From: a phage
Direction: 5' to 3' (one strand)
Length of the DNA: 44,509 bases
Sequence record: PZ049723.1
The notes beneath the pieces are model-generated. The model worked only from the letters and a program-made list of their open reading frames with translations. It had not been told where the DNA came from and did no database searches. The translations under genes and the position numbers were made by a program. Below are positions 30,438 to 36,497 of this stretch, in pieces (the stretch's first letter is position 1; each line of letters opens with the position of its first letter).

Positions 30438-30950
30438 ATGTTTGAGCAAATCGTAAACCTGATCACTCGCGGCGTAGTAGCACTGGAAACCATCGCTAAA
30501 CATTATGAAACCGTTGGCGCTGCCGTTGGTAAGCAGGAGGACAAGAAGCCGTCTAAGGCCAAAAAAGAAGTTGTCGAAGATGACGACGATGACGCCGAAG
30601 ACGAAAAACCGGCTAAATCTAAAAAAGCCCCGGCGAAAGGCAAGGCCAAAAAAGAAGTCGTAGAAGACGACGACGATGCCGAAGACGAAAAACCGGCTAA
30701 GGCTAAGAAAGCACCGGCGAAAGGCAAAGGTAAGAAAGATGCCGATCCGCTGGCAGAGATGCGCGACGAGATCAAACAATATGCCGCGATTATCGCTGGC
30801 GGTGATGACGACGACGCGAACGACGAATTCGACGACCTGCTGGAGTCGTTCGAGATCAAATCAATCGCCAAGCTGGAAGATGACGACGTCGAAGACTTCC
30901 ACACAGAGCTAAAAGAAATCGTCGAAACCTATTTCGAATTGGAAGATTAA
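30438..30950 (+). CDS. Highly acidic tandem-repeat protein; first early gene (DNA-mimic / anti-restriction candidate)
   Basis: ATG at 30438 with GGAG RBS; 170 aa; two copies of KKEVVEDDDDxAEDEKPAKxKKAPAKGK and acidic C-terminus; followed by terminator. Confidence 0.65.
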   Translation: MFEQIVNLITRGVVALETIAKHYETVGAAVGKQEDKKPSKAKKEVVEDDDDDAEDEKPAKSKKAPAKGKAKKEVVEDDDDAEDEKPAKAKKAPAKGKGKKDADPLAEMRDEIKQYAAIIAGGDDDDANDEFDDLLESFEIKSIAKLEDDDVEDFHTELKEIVETYFELED

Positions 30951-31250: not shown

Positions 31251-31439
31251 ATGGCTATATTCTTTGTTTTATTTCGTTGCCGTATTACCGGCGACGAGCA
31301 ACCGGAAATTGTTATGAATCAAAACTGGAATTGCTGCTGGATGCAAGCCCGAGGACTGGCGGCTACCATGAACAATGCCGCTAAGCGGGCCAATGTTGAA
31401 CACGATTATTACATTGCTCAATTTTCAAGGGTGGAATAA
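31251..31439 (+). CDS. Hypothetical small protein
   Basis: 62-aa ORF tightly packed between neighbours; weak RBS. Confidence 0.3.
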   Translation: MAIFFVLFRCRITGDEQPEIVMNQNWNCCWMQARGLAATMNNAAKRANVEHDYYIAQFSRVE

Positions 31440-32869
31440 TGGCGATTAAACCAAAACGTAAAACGCAATCCGGTAGCAATACGGAACACTCATTACTCGG
31501 CCCATCCGGTGCTAAAAAATGGATGGGTTGCCCCGCCGCCCTGGTGGTGGAAAAAGATATACCGAACGAATCCGGGCAAGCGGCGATTAACGGTACGAGT
31601 ATGCACACCGTATCTGAAGTCGTGCTCAACCGCATCATTGCCGGTGAGAAGCTGATAACCGCTAAGACGTACAAAGGGTGCTACGTCGAGAACGAAGGTA
31701 AGGGGCCGGTAAAGGCACACCCTAAAGCACCGAAAGGCGGCGTACTGGTCAACGACGACATGGTGAAACAGTGCGACGCGTACATCGACCACTGGCGACC
31801 GCTCCTCGAAGTGGCGGAGTTTGTCCAGCTTGAGATGCGCGCCGATCTGACCCGCGTCCTTCACTCAGGCTACGAGATCGACGGCAACAGGATTAAAACG
31901 TTCGGTACTGCCGATATGGTCATGGTCATGAAAAAGACCGATGGGACGTACATGCTGATTGTTGGCGACCTGAAGACCGGGCGGCATAAGGTCGAGGCGA
32001 AAGAGAACAAACAGCTTATGTTGTATGCGCTGGGCCTGCTGCGCAAGCTGAAAACCATGTACGACATTACGACCGTGCGCCTGGTTATCTTCCAGCCGTA
32101 TTGCGGCGGGGCGTCGGAGTGGGATATTTCGGTAGAAGCCCTGGAGATATTCGCGAAGTTTGCATCCAAGCGCGCTATTGCCGCACTGGAGGCGTACGCC
32201 CGCGGCAAGAAGGGACTAACCCGAGCAGACTTCCGGCCCAGCGTTGATGCGTGCCAGTGGTGTCGATTTGCAGACCAGTGCAGCGTCCGGGCGAAGGCTG
32301 CAATCGACACTATGACACCACCAACGGCAACCGACGAAGACCTGGGCGACGACGTGAGCGTGGCAACCGAGGAAGAGTGCGCCATCCACGACCGCAATAT
32401 GGCCCGCGAAGCCCGGAAGGCTGCCAGACGTGCTAAACGGGGCAAGAAGGAATCCACCCCCGGCGCTATGAGCGCGGCGGAACTGCGCAAGGCTTATGAA
32501 GGTCTTGACGCGATGCGCCAGCACATCAAGGCTATCGAGTCCGCGGTATTCAAGGCGGTCATGGCGGGCGATGGCGAATCGTTGGGCCTTAAGATGGTTG
32601 CCGGTAAGGAAGGGATCCGTAAGTGGGCAGACGAGAGCGAAGTGATTGAAATCTTCACGAAGGCCCGGATCAAGCGCGATGTGATGTACAAAGAAACATT
32701 ACTCAGCCCTACTGATGCCGAGAAGGTATTGAAGGACGAGAAGCCGAAAGTGTGGGCGAAATTGTGTGATAAAATCACGCGCGCACCGGCTAAACCGGTA
32801 TTAGCCCCTATAGACGACCCGCGCCCAGCGTGGTCCGAAGCTACAGACGAGGATTTAAATAATGAATAA
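31439..32869 (+). CDS. PD-(D/E)XK / Cas4-like nuclease (DUF2800-like)
   Basis: 476 aa; N-terminal GPSGAKKWMGCPA and C-terminal Cys cluster (C..CQWCRFADQC) as in RecB/Cas4-family nucleases; lies upstream of SSB-like and polymerase genes. Confidence 0.6.
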   Translation: MAIKPKRKTQSGSNTEHSLLGPSGAKKWMGCPAALVVEKDIPNESGQAAINGTSMHTVSEVVLNRIIAGEKLITAKTYKGCYVENEGKGPVKAHPKAPKGGVLVNDDMVKQCDAYIDHWRPLLEVAEFVQLEMRADLTRVLHSGYEIDGNRIKTFGTADMVMVMKKTDGTYMLIVGDLKTGRHKVEAKENKQLMLYALGLLRKLKTMYDITTVRLVIFQPYCGGASEWDISVEALEIFAKFASKRAIAALEAYARGKKGLTRADFRPSVDACQWCRFADQCSVRAKAAIDTMTPPTATDEDLGDDVSVATEEECAIHDRNMAREARKAARRAKRGKKESTPGAMSAAELRKAYEGLDAMRQHIKAIESAVFKAVMAGDGESLGLKMVAGKEGIRKWADESEVIEIFTKARIKRDVMYKETLLSPTDAEKVLKDEKPKVWAKLCDKITRAPAKPVLAPIDDPRPAWSEATDEDLNNE

Positions 32870-33104
32870 AGTATTCGCAATCTTATTGATGTTTTTGCTC
32901 GGCGCGCTGGGCTTTATCCTGCATTGCGTGCAAGGCGTGTTAATGGTGGCCTGGATGATTCGCCATCCAACCCAATGGCTGGATGATGGATACAGCACCA
33001 TTGCCGTGGCGTGGATCGCGAGACATGGCGACCGACCGCCGCTAAGCTGGATCGAGAACGCCACCAACTACGTTACCCGAAATCTTTTTAATGAAAATGC
33101 TTGA
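32862..33104 (+). CDS. Small membrane protein
   Basis: 80 aa with two hydrophobic helices; ATG overlaps the upstream stop. Confidence 0.45.
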   Translation: MNKVFAILLMFLLGALGFILHCVQGVLMVAWMIRHPTQWLDDGYSTIAVAWIARHGDRPPLSWIENATNYVTRNLFNENA

Positions 33105-33129
33105 CCGCTTAGGCGCAACCAAGTAGATT
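33101..33129 (+). promoter_or_regulatory. Promoter-like sequence upstream of SSB-like gene
   Basis: TTGACC (33101-33106), 17-bp spacer containing GCAACCAAG (33115-33123), TAGATT (33124-33129); second GCAACCAAG at 33131-33139. Confidence 0.4.
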
Positions 33130-33194: not shown

Positions 33195-33980
33195 ATGGCT
33201 AAAGTCAACCTGAAAAATGTGCGTGTATGTTTCCTGAAAATTTGGGAACGTGATACCCCTAAACAGGATGGACAAAAACCAGCATACCGTGCCGTGATTC
33301 TTCTTGATAAAGAAGATCCGCAGGTGGACAAAGTGGAAGCGGCAGCGCGCGCAGTGCTCACCGACAAGCTGAAATCTGAGAAGAATGCCGATAAGTGGAT
33401 GGACCGCCACTACGCCCAGGATTCTAAGGAATGCGCAGTTCGTGACGGTGACGAGCGCGACGAAGTAACCGAAGAATTCGAAGGCATGTTGTACATCAAC
33501 GCTAAATCGTTCAAACAGCCAAACATTCAAACGTCACTCGGCGAGAAGCAGACCGAACAGGGTCTGACCGTAGAAGGCGACGAGATTGAAGGCCAGGAGA
33601 TCTACTCCGGTTGTTATTGCAACGTGTCCCTTGATATCTGGGCGTGGAACAATACCAACGGCAAGGGGCTCGGTGCTGGCTTGCTGGGTCTGCGATTCCG
33701 TGAAGACGGCGAAGCCTTCGGAGGTGGCGGGTCTTCATGTTCCGACGAAGACCTGGACAACGACGACGAAGACGAAAGCCCGCGTAAGTCCAAAAAGTCA
33801 AAACGTCGTGATGACGATGATGAAGATGACAAGCCGCGCAAGTCCAAGAAATCCAAGCGCCGCGATGACGACGACGATGAGGAAGATGAAAAACCTCGCA
33901 AACGCCGCAAGTCCCGCGATGACGAAGATGAGGACGAAGACGACGAAGACGAAGCACCACGTAAACGTCGCCGCCGTTAA
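33195..33980 (+). CDS. ssDNA-binding protein (DUF2815-like) with unusual alternating basic/acidic repeat tail
   Basis: ATG at 33195 with GAGGA RBS; 261 aa; C-terminal ~80 aa are repeats of PRKSKKSKRRDDDDE-type units ending in RKRRRR. Confidence 0.55.
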   Translation: MAKVNLKNVRVCFLKIWERDTPKQDGQKPAYRAVILLDKEDPQVDKVEAAARAVLTDKLKSEKNADKWMDRHYAQDSKECAVRDGDERDEVTEEFEGMLYINAKSFKQPNIQTSLGEKQTEQGLTVEGDEIEGQEIYSGCYCNVSLDIWAWNNTNGKGLGAGLLGLRFREDGEAFGGGGSSCSDEDLDNDDEDESPRKSKKSKRRDDDDEDDKPRKSKKSKRRDDDDDEEDEKPRKRRKSRDDEDEDEDDEDEAPRKRRRR

Positions 33981-33999
33981 GGGCAAAGCCCACTATTCA

Positions 34000-34023
34000 A
34001 GCCCGCTTAATGCGGGCTTTTTA
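34000..34023 (+). terminator. Rho-independent terminator after SSB-like gene
   Basis: agcccgc-ttaat-gcgggct stem followed by TTTTTAAT. Confidence 0.6.
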
Positions 34024-34038
34024 ATAGGACAACGAAAA

Positions 34039-34209
34039 ATGCGTATTAAAGCCAGCGAAGTAAAAGTCGGAATGCAAGTATGGTCCAAGCTACTGGGGGA
34101 ATATTTCACGGTTGCCGAGATTCGCAACAACGGCGAAGAGATCGCCCTGTCAGACGGCATCTTCTCCATGATCGGCAGCGCTGACGCCGTAGTGAGGATT
34201 AAGCAATGA
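34039..34209 (+). CDS. Hypothetical small protein (56 aa)
   Basis: ATG at 34039; stop overlaps the polymerase start (ATGA). Confidence 0.35.
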   Translation: MRIKASEVKVGMQVWSKLLGEYFTVAEIRNNGEEIALSDGIFSMIGSADAVVRIKQ

Positions 34210-36497
34210 AAGACTTCGAACGTCTGTTTCTCGACACCGAGACATTTAGCGATGTGGACCTGAAGAAAGTGGGCGCATACGCCTACGCGGAACACCCAAC
34301 TACTGAGATTATGATTTGCACCTACGCCATCGACGAGGGGCGCGTGCAGACATGGGATTGCACCGAATCCCCTACAATGCCGCGTGAACTGCGCAAGGCG
34401 CTCCGCCGGGTATCCCGCAAGAAAGCAAAAATCGTGATGGCTAACGGCCTCCTGTTTGACCGCCTGGTCATTCGCGAGAAGTGGGGCATTGACCTGCCAG
34501 TGTGCCAGATCGAAGACACCATGATTATGGCCTTTCGCCACGCGCTGCCCGGTAGCCTCGATATGCAGTGTCAGGTACTGGGCGTTGACGCAGAGCACGC
34601 GAAGGATAAGGCGGGCAAGGCGCTGATCAAACGGTTCTGTAAGCCTACCCCTAAGACCTACAAAATCCGCCGCTACACTCGCGAGACTCACCCAGAAGAG
34701 TGGGCCAAATTTCTGCGCTATGCCGCGCTGGATATTGTTGCCATGCGTGAAGTCTACTGGCGCATACCGGACTGGGGCAACTCACCGAAGGAAGACGAAA
34801 TCCTGCTCATCGACCAGATTATTAACGACCGAGGCTTCTATGTGGACGTTGACCTGGCGAACGCCGCGATCAAGGCGGTGCGGGCGCATAAGGAAGAATT
34901 GAAGGAAGAGGCATGGGAGCGGTTTGGCGGCAAGCTGACCGGAAACGACTTCCTGCCGATTCTGCGTGATATTGCCCCGGCGTTCACGATCCACAACGCG
35001 CAGAAATCCACGCTGAACGACTTGCTTGAAGACCCGGACTTCCCCGACGAAGGCAAAGCGCTTATCGAAATGCGCCTCGGCGCGTCATCAACGGCATCGA
35101 CTAAATACAATCCGCTCGTTAATGGCCTGTCTGCCGATGGTCGTCGCCGTGGGTGTATTCAGTATGGCGGCGCAAAGCGCACGCTACGCTGGGCTGGTAA
35201 AGGCTTCCAGCCGCAAAACCTGGCACGCGGCGAGTATAGCGACGACCACGAAGGGAAGATTAAGCGCCGCGAAGGCGAGAGCGACGTCTCGTTTTGGGTG
35301 CGGTCGCACATGCTCACCAATGGCATCAATTCCCTGTTACGCGGGACAGCGCACTGGGCGTACGACATATCGAAGCTGACCGCCTCGACCGTTCGCGGGT
35401 GCATTATCCCTGCAAAGGGCAAGAAGTTTGTCGTAGCTGACTACTCCAACGTGGAAGGGCGCGGCCTTGCCTGGATCGCTGGCGAGAAAACCGCGCTAAT
35501 GGTGTTTAAGGCCGGGCGCGATATCTATTGCGAGACTGCCGGTAAGATGTTCGGCCTGGACCCGGACTACATCAAAGCCAACCGCAAAGACTTGCGCCAG
35601 ATCGGTAAGGCGTGTGAGTTGGGGCTGGGCTATGGTGGCGGCGTGGCGGCGTTCTTACAGTTCGCTAAAAACCTGGGCCTCGACCTTTACACTATGGCGG
35701 ACGTCATGAAAGGCACGTTCCCGGATCACATTTGGGCAGCGGCTAAACGGGGTTATGAATACGCCCGCATTAACGAAGCGAAGCGCCCGCCGAAGCCTGG
35801 CAAGAAAGACGAGCGACCAACATACATACTGCCGAAAAACGTATGGCTTACCTGTGACGCGATCAAACGTATGTGGCGTGAGGCTCACCCGAAGACGGTA
35901 GCCTTTTGGGCCGAGCTTGAGGACGCGGTGTTGTGTGCAATCCGCAATCCGGGCAAAGCCTACTGGGCTGGCGCTAACGTTCGCCCAGACGGTAGAAAAG
36001 CGCTCAAGATTGTGCGCACGAAGGCGAAGCACGACCCAACCTTCGACGAGGAGCGCGACGACCCGAACGCTGCGGGGTGGTGGTTGAAAATTGAGTTGCC
36101 GTCAGGGCGCATCATGAGCTATCCCGGTATCGCGCTGTCTGTCACGACCGAGATCGACGAAGACACCGGCAAGAAGCGCACCAGCACACGCATCAAATAC
36201 CAGGGCGAGAATCAGACGACGCGCCAGTGGGGTTTCCAGTACACCTACGGCGGCAAACTAACGGAGAACATCGTACAGGCGTTGTGCCGCGATATTCTCG
36301 CGTGGTCCATGCCTGGCGTTGAAGCCGCCGGATATGAGATCGTCCTGTCAGTGCACGATGAATTGGTCACCGAAGTGCCGGACACCGACGACTACACCAC
36401 CGAGGAGCTTTGCGCGCTGATGTGCGACCTGCCTATTTGGGCAAAAGGCTTCCCACTTGCCGCCGAAGGCGACATTATGTACAGGTACAGGAAGTAA
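34206..36497 (+). CDS. DNA polymerase, family A, with 3'-5' exonuclease domain
   Basis: 763 aa; exonuclease motif LFLDTETFS near N-terminus; polymerase motif KQIGKACELGLGYGGG; motif C VLSVHDELV. Confidence 0.9.
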   Translation: MKDFERLFLDTETFSDVDLKKVGAYAYAEHPTTEIMICTYAIDEGRVQTWDCTESPTMPRELRKALRRVSRKKAKIVMANGLLFDRLVIREKWGIDLPVCQIEDTMIMAFRHALPGSLDMQCQVLGVDAEHAKDKAGKALIKRFCKPTPKTYKIRRYTRETHPEEWAKFLRYAALDIVAMREVYWRIPDWGNSPKEDEILLIDQIINDRGFYVDVDLANAAIKAVRAHKEELKEEAWERFGGKLTGNDFLPILRDIAPAFTIHNAQKSTLNDLLEDPDFPDEGKALIEMRLGASSTASTKYNPLVNGLSADGRRRGCIQYGGAKRTLRWAGKGFQPQNLARGEYSDDHEGKIKRREGESDVSFWVRSHMLTNGINSLLRGTAHWAYDISKLTASTVRGCIIPAKGKKFVVADYSNVEGRGLAWIAGEKTALMVFKAGRDIYCETAGKMFGLDPDYIKANRKDLRQIGKACELGLGYGGGVAAFLQFAKNLGLDLYTMADVMKGTFPDHIWAAAKRGYEYARINEAKRPPKPGKKDERPTYILPKNVWLTCDAIKRMWREAHPKTVAFWAELEDAVLCAIRNPGKAYWAGANVRPDGRKALKIVRTKAKHDPTFDEERDDPNAAGWWLKIELPSGRIMSYPGIALSVTTEIDEDTGKKRTSTRIKYQGENQTTRQWGFQYTYGGKLTENIVQALCRDILAWSMPGVEAAGYEIVLSVHDELVTEVPDTDDYTTEELCALMCDLPIWAKGFPLAAEGDIMYRYRK

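Follow-up and report, generated by a model that had tools for sequence, protein, structure and literature searches.

The question raised by this locus is how the SSB (single-stranded DNA-binding protein) of a phage came to end in alternating basic and acidic blocks closed by a run of arginines, and what such a tail may do. The SSB gene lies at 33195-33980 in a 44,509-nt stretch of phage DNA (record PZ049723.1) that was analysed as a whole and is called the window here; coordinates are window positions. An 8-kb stretch around the tail has 93-96% DNA identity to the genomes of >130 Escherichia phages in the genus Dhillonvirus, which identifies the window phage, by sequence, as a Dhillonvirus (HK578-like E. 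coli siphophage). A first-pass annotation had described an alternating basic/acidic repeat tail at 33740-33980; the tail was confirmed, and those coordinates are correct to within one base. SSB residues 183-261 (nt 33741-33977) form four acidic and four basic blocks and end in APRKRRRR (read block by block in Table 1). These 79 residues include 28 K+R and 37 D+E (82% charged, net charge -9). Their kappa, a measure of charge segregation, is 0.57 and exceeds every one of 2000 shuffles (0.105 +/- 0.044, maximum 0.32; z = 10.7). Tandem Repeats Finder detected a 54-bp period in the tail DNA (2.3 copies, 76% matches). In the AlphaFold2 model, the predicted local distance difference test (pLDDT) score is below 50 for the greater part of residues 206-255, and the only secondary structure in the tail is a helix of 3 residues (184-186). 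The tail is thus a blocky polyampholyte that is predicted to be disordered.

The same annotation called the protein SSB-like and proposed a profile search to confirm the family of its N-terminal domain. That search was run, and PF10991, phrog_112, and AlphaFold2/Foldseek agree on an SSB fold. The Pfam profile PF10991 (Enc34_ssDNA-bd) matches with 111.1 bits (cut-off 26; E = 6.4e-32) and spans residues 3-193, corresponding to profile positions 2-173 of 176. PHROG 112 ('Gp2.5-like') matches with E = 2.7e-51, the core is 97-100% identical to Dhillonvirus records labelled ssDNA-binding/annealing protein, and Protein Data Bank (PDB) entries 4klk, 4jg2, and 5odj were matched by sequence. Top Foldseek matches in the PDB to the modelled core were 4klk (DUF2815, E = 2e-12) and 5odl (Enc34 SSB with single-stranded DNA [ssDNA], E = 2.8e-12); T7 gp2.5 (1je5) followed with E = 1e-6, and TM-scores normalised to target length were 0.49-0.76 for these three. 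Y137, G139, and F168 are invariant in a 76-sequence alignment, and C140 is conserved in at least 90% (the Y137-C140 region is the YSGC motif). The bacterial-type SSB domain PF00436 had no match to the protein at E <= 0.01. The start is an ATG at 33195 with GAGG upstream, and homologue alignments likewise start with MAKV. By family and predicted fold, the product is a T7-gp2.5/Enc34-type SSB, for which ssDNA binding and strand annealing are probable. The SSB of Dhillonvirus SECphi4 triggers retron Eco8 as T7 gp2.5 does, which indirectly supports an SSB-type function. A strong hairpin and T run beyond the stop codon (RNA fold -24.6 kcal/mol, z = -4.3 vs shuffles) indicate that the SSB truly ends in arginines. 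A 'terminator' is annotated at the same spot in phages PTXU06 and WFI, and a simple terminator consensus scan did not list it.

The first-pass annotation held that the repeats stand instead of the usual acidic tip, and this is half right. The acidic, hydrophobic C-terminus is absent, but an acidic tail is kept. HMMER aligns DEDLDNDDEDE of the window protein (residues 184-194) with DEDEDEWDEDE, the acidic tail of Enc34 ORF6 in its full length, so the classical acidic tail is retained and the following 67 residues are an addition. Enc34 ORF6 (PDB 5ODJ, 5ODK, 5ODL) resembles the window SSB in Pfam family, fold, and module context, and the acidic segments that come right after ...DGEAFG align residue for residue. 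Enc34 ORF6 stops there (...WDEDEV), whereas the window SSB runs 67 residues further to its arginines. In crystals of the Enc34 SSB, the acidic tail lies in the DNA-binding groove, and removal of the tail gives binding to double-stranded DNA; a long acidic tail is present in each of the four T7-type SSBs of known structure (PMC5686142). T7 gp2.5 shares the fold (1je5) at just 11-14% identity. Its tail is acidic, Phe-terminated, and free of basic blocks, whereas the window SSB lacks an acidic or aromatic terminus; T7 also lacks the DUF2800 nuclease and the companion protein described below. Judged from sequence, the window SSB departs from known T7-type SSBs in its basic terminus and in the basic blocks interleaved in its tail.

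Homologues were compared to place the tail in the history of the family. A search with the whole protein, which favours similar tails, returned 120 homologues. Repeats with a basic (PRRRRR-type) end were found in 45, all of them closest relatives (~40-97% identity), 35 combine 2-12 basic/acidic repeats with an acidic end (...DDDVA, ...DDDDVV, ...DDDDI), and 23 are short proteins with a plain acidic tail. A less biased search with the core only, against 1.84 billion cluster representatives, returned 2191 relatives. Among the best 150 of these, 127 have no basic block (median length 192 aa), the last six residues are net acidic in 99 and net basic in 10, and 87 end in A, F, L, I, or V. An acidic, hydrophobic-terminated tip is thus a mark of typical members, not part of the Pfam definition, and the window SSB is without it. 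The striped tail is, on these sequence comparisons, a minority and derived state. Across 242 tails, D+E = 7.5 + 1.135 x (K+R) (r = 0.965), indicating that added basic residues are compensated and that a net charge near -8 is kept. A rough neighbour-joining tree of the core places the window protein in a clade of 62, every one of them with basic blocks and 76% with a basic end, and the family tree shows no fewer than 15 events of gain or loss of such blocks. The alternating pattern persists from 27% to 97% core identity despite quite different unit sequences. Termini of cultured relatives form a plausible series from Salmonella phage St162 (...ERPRRKRRSYEDDEE; PRRKRRSYEDDEE) through Bas70 (Kagunavirus-like, ...DEAPRRERRRR) and SE-W112 (Jersey-like, ...ETPRRERRRNR) to Dhillonvirus (...DEAPRKRRRR), and the more distant 611R5, APSE-2, and UF_RH7 have plain acidic tails with hydrophobic ends. 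From this series, the basic terminus looks derived through loss of an acidic end that is still present in St162. Outside this family, phrog_15004 (annotated as a single-strand DNA binding protein) had a weak match to SSB residues 184-259 (E = 1e-4) in its C-terminal part (profile positions 301-392 of 421). The match may point to similar striped tails in unrelated families of phage SSBs, or else reflect a composition effect. A protein search with the tail only, under composition filtering, gave 8000 candidates, none of them significant.

The tail region was matched in 161 phage records, 149 of which cover at least 80% of it (spans of 384-570 bp vs a 561-bp query). Eight Dhillonvirus records were translated, seven of them intact and the eighth (101114B2) frameshifted. 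EDEAPRKRRRR ends all seven intact, independently sequenced tails as well as the window protein, so the repeats are not the assembly artefact that the first-pass annotation had allowed for. The copy-number comparison it had proposed was also made and gave 0-3 internal units among close relatives with an invariant terminus. Intact SSBs range from welsh (202 aa) through Envy (236), HK578 (240), SO-1 (256), LM40P1 (257), and B2 (260) to PS2 (264). The tail of welsh is SDEDLDNDDEDE-APRKRRRR alone, with zero internal units, and unit 2 is missing from HK578, Envy, and welsh. In comparisons of the window with five Dhillonviruses that have well-aligned tails (L002-L005, L007), non-synonymous (pN) and synonymous (pS) divergence were 0.011-0.036 and 0.27-0.50 in the tail, figures that low-complexity alignment may flatter, and 0.005-0.029 and 0.20-0.30 in the core. 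The more divergent L008 gave a tail pN of 0.072 and pS of 0.47, with a core pN of 0.050. The 20-codon tail alignment of welsh (L001; tail pN 0.236) was left out as unreliable. Units 1 and 2 of the window have an identical PRKSKKSKRR block in which 7 of ~7.3 synonymous sites and zero non-synonymous sites have changed. The tail is under purifying selection like the folded core, and neutral drift is hard to square with these figures.

Two other explanations meet their evidence here. The internal units could be neutral low-complexity expansions, generated through slippage or unequal recombination where a disordered tail tolerates them. Copy numbers of 0-3 in close relatives, the low cost of near-neutral units, and the existence of frameshifted variants fit such a process. 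We give it a slim chance, since tail pN/pS is as low as that of the core, the basic block is identical across saturated synonymous divergence, and the alternating pattern is kept with differing units over the whole 27-97% range of core identity, and basic blocks came or went at least 15 times. Variation in the tail could also be an escape from, or a decoy for, bacterial defences that sense phage SSBs. Dhillonvirus SSBs trigger retron Eco8 (bioRxiv 10.1101/2022.08.27.505566) and type III Sir2-HerA (PMC13434337), and length polymorphism is variation that an arms race can yield. Selection on the tail is purifying rather than diversifying, PADLOC had no match for the SSB or the companion, and we regard this explanation as very improbable. 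The frameshifted variants are L006 (vB_EcoS-101114B2, 396-1190), P0005 (vB_EcoS-22664B1), and P0008. The shift is inside the repeat, and the tails read ...MTKTRTTTTKTKHHVNVAAVKGKAHYSSPL... up to a later stop, with the arginine end lost. These three frameshifts either come from mistakes in sequencing or assembling T-poor repeats or mark natural variants in which the terminus can be lost.

A related repeat style had been noticed in the first early protein, together with a guess at a shared interaction mode. The style is present in this 170-aa protein (30438-30950), called the companion here, which has two copies of EDEKPAKSKKAPAKGKAKKEVVEDDDD. Charge-striped segments occur in the companion and the SSB only among the ORFs (open reading frames) of the window, and EDEKPxKxKK is common to both. 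AlphaFold2 predicts a helix at residues 2-27, disorder in the middle (23-99), which is rich in K, A, P, E, and D, and a very acidic 3-helix bundle at 104-166 with pLDDT >90. Homologues range from 115 to ~179 aa, and repeat number is polymorphic among Dhillonviruses. A profile was built from proteins at the equivalent position, using 80 further loci from IMG/VR and several metagenomic contigs. It settles on one ORF in 74 of 90 loci with a DUF2815 SSB, always upstream of DUF2800 and the SSB and never downstream, with a median gap to the SSB of 1324 nt, the size of the nuclease gene. The profile finds the window protein at E = 3e-15 (profile-profile probability 97.7%). Examples from other loci are L010 694-1350, L016 3080-3520, L017 3311-3721, and L052 5370-5804. 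Companions had nothing above threshold in Pfam and matched only families of unknown function in PHROGs (phrog_3127, phrog_408, and relatives), and Foldseek against the PDB gave nothing significant (best E = 0.56; Red-beta C-terminal domain at E ~7). By sequence and position, the companion is a conserved, uncharacterised member of the module. The invariant DEFDDLL of the companion was considered as a free linear motif like EFDDL, the most frequent motif of SSB tails, and rejected, as AlphaFold2 places it in helix 125-137 of the folded bundle. Homology at DNA level was also rejected for the window's two repeat regions, which have just 26-32-nt GA-rich acidic-coding matches that were taken as compositional. 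Two distant phages, L020 (4973-5797, 7001-7891) and L021 (5068-5691, 7001-7888), have a lineage-specific repeat style common to the upstream protein and the SSB tail. Both proteins have Ser/Lys-rich blocks and poly-Asp in the low-GC L020 and PAKKPA..VVEDDEEDE units in L021; the companion profile did not recover the upstream protein of L020.

The C-termini of SSB and companion are alike within genomes. Pairs include DDDPLA/DDDPLA, PARRSRRDHDDV/KPARSRRDDDV (RRDHDDV/RRDDDV), DDDDVV/EEDDVV, DDDLV/DDALV, DDDVA/EEDLA, DDEMI/GDSAI, and SYEDDEE/KYYDIED. The observed match score was reached by 0 of 20000 partner permutations among 50 non-redundant genomes. With one genome from each of 17 clusters (60% SSB-core identity), it was reached by 0 of 50000 permutations using BLOSUM scores and 232 of 50000 using identity. 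SSB tails also score highest against the companion of their own genome (13/20000 permutations). Codons of the matching tips differ at synonymous sites, so recent gene conversion was rejected as their source, and the sequences indicate a match that is maintained, not recently copied. The net charge of the last 65 companion residues is -10.0 +/- 3.7 beside SSBs with basic blocks (n = 14) and -2.4 +/- 4.3 beside SSBs with plain tails (n = 36; p = 1e-5). The window has an extreme charge pair, with +6 at the SSB end and -20 in the companion region. A third protein is matched as well. The C-terminal tail of the DUF2800 nuclease, SEATDEDLNNE (nt 32834-32866), resembles acidic block A of the SSB (CSDEDLDNDDEDE). 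Across 82 loci, in which all 82 upstream ORFs were checked to be DUF2800, the last 12 nuclease residues match the start of the SSB tail from the same genome (NDFDLIN/DDFDVIDEDF, DEFDDLD/EEFDDLEEE; ATDEDLNNE/CSDEDLDND in the window), a score reached by 2 permutations in 50000 when 18 clusters were used and by none in 50000 when 30 were. The guess at a shared interaction mode thus gains real support from the within-genome tail matching and the acidity of the companion.

We tentatively propose, at a little short of an even chance, that the SSB tail acts as an electrostatic interaction hub for the module of companion, DUF2800 nuclease, SSB, and DNA polymerase (PolA). The proposal draws on what the protein is, how it evolved, the predicted disorder of its tail, the selection on it, and the matching of tail motifs within genomes, and from these we infer which partner may bind which. 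Acidic block A, the ancestral element, would compete with DNA for the OB groove, and the nuclease C-terminus would mimic block A at the same SSB site. The 0-3 near-neutral units (PRKSKKSKRR plus an acidic run) would extend the tail while its net charge stays at ~-8. The terminal motif would normally be a docking signal common to SSB and companion that was lost from the SSB in this clade, leaving the arginine end as a remnant; the companion of the clade still has its acidic terminus. Basic blocks and arginine end would bind acidic surfaces, with the unusually acidic C-terminal domain of the companion as the best candidate and neighbouring SSB tails or nucleic acid as alternative targets. T7 offers what is, by analogy, the best precedent for tail matching among SSB, companion, and nuclease. 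In gp2.5, the disordered tail vies with ssDNA for the groove and also docks on partners, and work from the Richardson laboratory reportedly found that gp2.5 and the gp4 helicase-primase carry look-alike acidic tails for gp5. The tip shared by SSB and companion is likened to these look-alike tails on T7 polymerase and is read as a docking signal for that reason. A more elaborate version is rather unlikely in our view. Here, the module would be held together by a co-evolving code of C-terminal tails, with the nuclease tail as a copy of the first acidic SSB segment and the companion end as a copy of the SSB tip. The hub would be split in Dhillonvirus, Jerseyvirus, and Kagunavirus, where poly-arginine would have replaced the acidic SSB tip and would dock on the hyper-acidic companion, which would present the acidic tip to a common receptor in trans.

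The basic blocks and arginine end could alternatively form a second, non-specific nucleic-acid site that confers cooperativity or faster annealing, with the acidic blocks keeping the SSB soluble and self-inhibited and with no need for the companion. T4 gp32 also joins a basic K/R-S/T element and an acidic, partner-binding, self-inhibiting element in one SSB, although its fold is unrelated and the two elements are at opposite ends, neither interleaved nor repeated. Casas-Finet and Karpel reportedly showed that the N-terminal basic (Lys/Arg)3(Ser/Thr)2 motif of gp32 confers cooperativity, and PRKSKKSKRR resembles that K/R-S/T-rich motif. The annotation of the family as SSB plus annealing protein and the identity of the basic block between units despite saturated synonymous change also favour such a site, as does the lack of any other ssb gene in the duf2800-gp2.5-polA module, which has already been described (PMC8093625). 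A second site leaves unexplained the inter-protein motif matches and the companion acidity that tracks SSB basic blocks, and the net charge of the tail stays negative, contrary to a simple gain of DNA affinity. We consider it a serious but unlikely explanation.

The striped tail could also drive condensates, by self-association or by coacervation with DNA or the companion, and so concentrate the replication machinery. The kappa of 0.57, the predicted disorder, and the similar striped region of the companion are consistent with this. E. coli SSB resembles the window SSB in having a disordered spacer of variable length and a short conserved terminal motif, and its spacer composition tunes cooperativity and condensation (PMC12143593). 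It differs in its OB family (PF00436), in a Gly/Gln/Pro-rich and almost uncharged linker, and in an acidic tip (DDDIPF vs APRKRRRR). Condensation is argued purely by analogy; welsh was isolated and forms plaques without stripes, and the inability of the Plasmodium SSB linker to support condensation is ascribed to excess negative charge (PMC12143593), the window tail being likewise net negative. We think that condensates are quite unlikely to be the explanation.

Several points weigh against the interaction hub. The termini of SSB and companion are unmatched in the window's own clade and opposite in charge, so their pairing there is an extrapolation. Repeat numbers of SSB and companion do not co-vary among 16 Dhillonviruses (rho 0.20, p 0.45). 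The genomes are related by descent and contain ~10 distinct tip types, so the permutation figures overstate independence, and genome base composition could explain part of the shared repeat style. The internal units are absent from welsh and are therefore dispensable for viability. The tails of 101114B2, 22664B1, and P0008 are frameshifted and without the arginine end, which would be dispensable too if these shifts are not sequencing errors. Structure predictions are of monomers only.

The features of the locus are collected in Table 1. The early operon is transcribed rightward in the order small ORF, companion, small ORFs, DUF2800 nuclease, 80-aa ORF, SSB, 56-aa ORF, and PolA, and the helicase-primase is transcribed divergently from it.

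Table 1. Coordinates of the SSB gene, its tail elements, and neighbouring features in the window
Feature	Coordinates	Strand	Basis or remark
Companion protein, 170 aa, phrog_3127	30438..30950	+	N-terminal helix, disordered striped middle, acidic C-terminal 3-helix bundle (predicted)
DUF2800 PD-(D/E)XK nuclease	31439..32869	+	PF10926, E 1e-65
SSB gene	33195..33980	+	261 aa plus TAA; PF10991, phrog_112, near-identical Dhillonvirus cores
OB-fold core, aa 1-175	33195..33719	+	AlphaFold2 pLDDT >90 over residues 1-170; Foldseek; invariant residues
Gly/Ser hinge GGGGSSC, aa 176-182	33720..33740	+	Translation; pLDDT drops from 98 to 69-64
Acidic block A SDEDLDNDDEDE, aa 183-194	33741..33776	+	Aligns with Enc34 ORF6 acidic tail
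Repeat unit 1 SPRKSKKSKRR-DDDDEDD, aa 195-212	33777..33830	+	Net charge 0
Repeat unit 2 KPRKSKKSKRR-DDDDDEEDE, aa 213-232	33831..33890	+	Net charge -1
Repeat unit 3 KPRKRRKSR-DDEDEDEDDEDE, aa 233-253	33891..33953	+	In all intact Dhillonvirus variants examined but welsh
Arginine-rich C-terminus APRKRRRR, aa 254-261	33954..33977	+	TAA follows at 33978-33980
Intrinsic-terminator-like hairpin AAGCCCGC/GCGGGCTT plus T run	33999..34024	+	Immediately past SSB stop
Family A DNA polymerase (PolA)	34206..36497	+	PF00476; completes duf2800-gp2.5-polA module

The tail DNA is poor in T (9.7% vs 23% window-wide), and four of six frames are free of stops while one has a single stop. The first-pass annotation had attributed long spurious antisense ORFs to the repetitive DNA, and the T-poor stretch accounts for the ORFs at 33511-33993(-), 33614-33910(-), 33798-33986(-), and 33586-34209(+) by leaving frames open. 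The plus-strand frame stays open from within the SSB gene, past the terminator, and closes with the 56-aa ORF at its stop; that ORF (34039-34209) overlaps the start of the polymerase at 34206. This frame is probably a by-product of composition and is closed in 101114B2. A programmed frameshift fusing the SSB to the small downstream ORF was rejected, as the shifted frame in 101114B2 stops early and the open frames come from T-poor DNA. The gap of 325 nt between nuclease and SSB contains a sigma-70-like promoter match at 33101-33129 (+; TTGACC, 17 nt, TAGATT), which overlaps the 80-aa ORF (32862-33104) at its end. This match may serve the abundant SSB as an internal promoter, and the count of such matches is not above shuffled expectation. 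The polymerase gene is interrupted in some relatives by an annotated intein (Pubbukkers) or an annotated type I self-splicing intron (SO-1); it is 3189 nt long in PS2 and 2292 nt in the window, where it appears uninterrupted. Three records with other host labels have ~92-93% DNA identity to E. coli Dhillonviruses here: MG065648.1 ('Campylobacter phage A144'), OQ221563.1 ('Acinetobacter phage NJ01'), and OQ291023.1 ('Salmonella phage Kenya-K19'). Mislabelling of the host or contamination of the samples may explain this. In the unrelated Erwinia jumbo phages pEa_SNUABM_16 and pEa_SNUABM_28, a hypothetical gene (~256,300-256,660) has 34 nt that are 97% identical to DNA of the acidic repeat (query positions 418-451, ~window 33917-33950), a match that is most likely GA-rich low complexity.

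A literature search, incomplete in coverage and leaving novelty unproven, found no account of the companion, of tail matching, or of an SSB tail that alternates in charge or ends in arginines. Textbooks and the primary literature take the acidic C-terminal tail to be universal for bacterial and phage SSBs (e.g., PMC5686142), and this rule is broken here at the terminus. The group that breaks it is large and well cultured and comprises Dhillonvirus, Jerseyvirus, and Kagunavirus, with several hundred genomes that include the BASEL and SECphi model phages. Dhillonvirus SSBs serve as model triggers of retron Eco8 and Sir2-HerA, and the retron Eco8 work left the tail aside as 'flexible C-terminal residues' (bioRxiv 10.1101/2022.08.27.505566). 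The natural variants with 0-3 units are a ready deletion series. The matching of tail motifs points to an undescribed, tail-based interaction network and gives a first testable role to the conserved companion (phrog_3127, phrog_408, and relatives). Because it extends across three proteins, it yields testable hypotheses on how a widespread and unstudied replication/recombination module may be wired.

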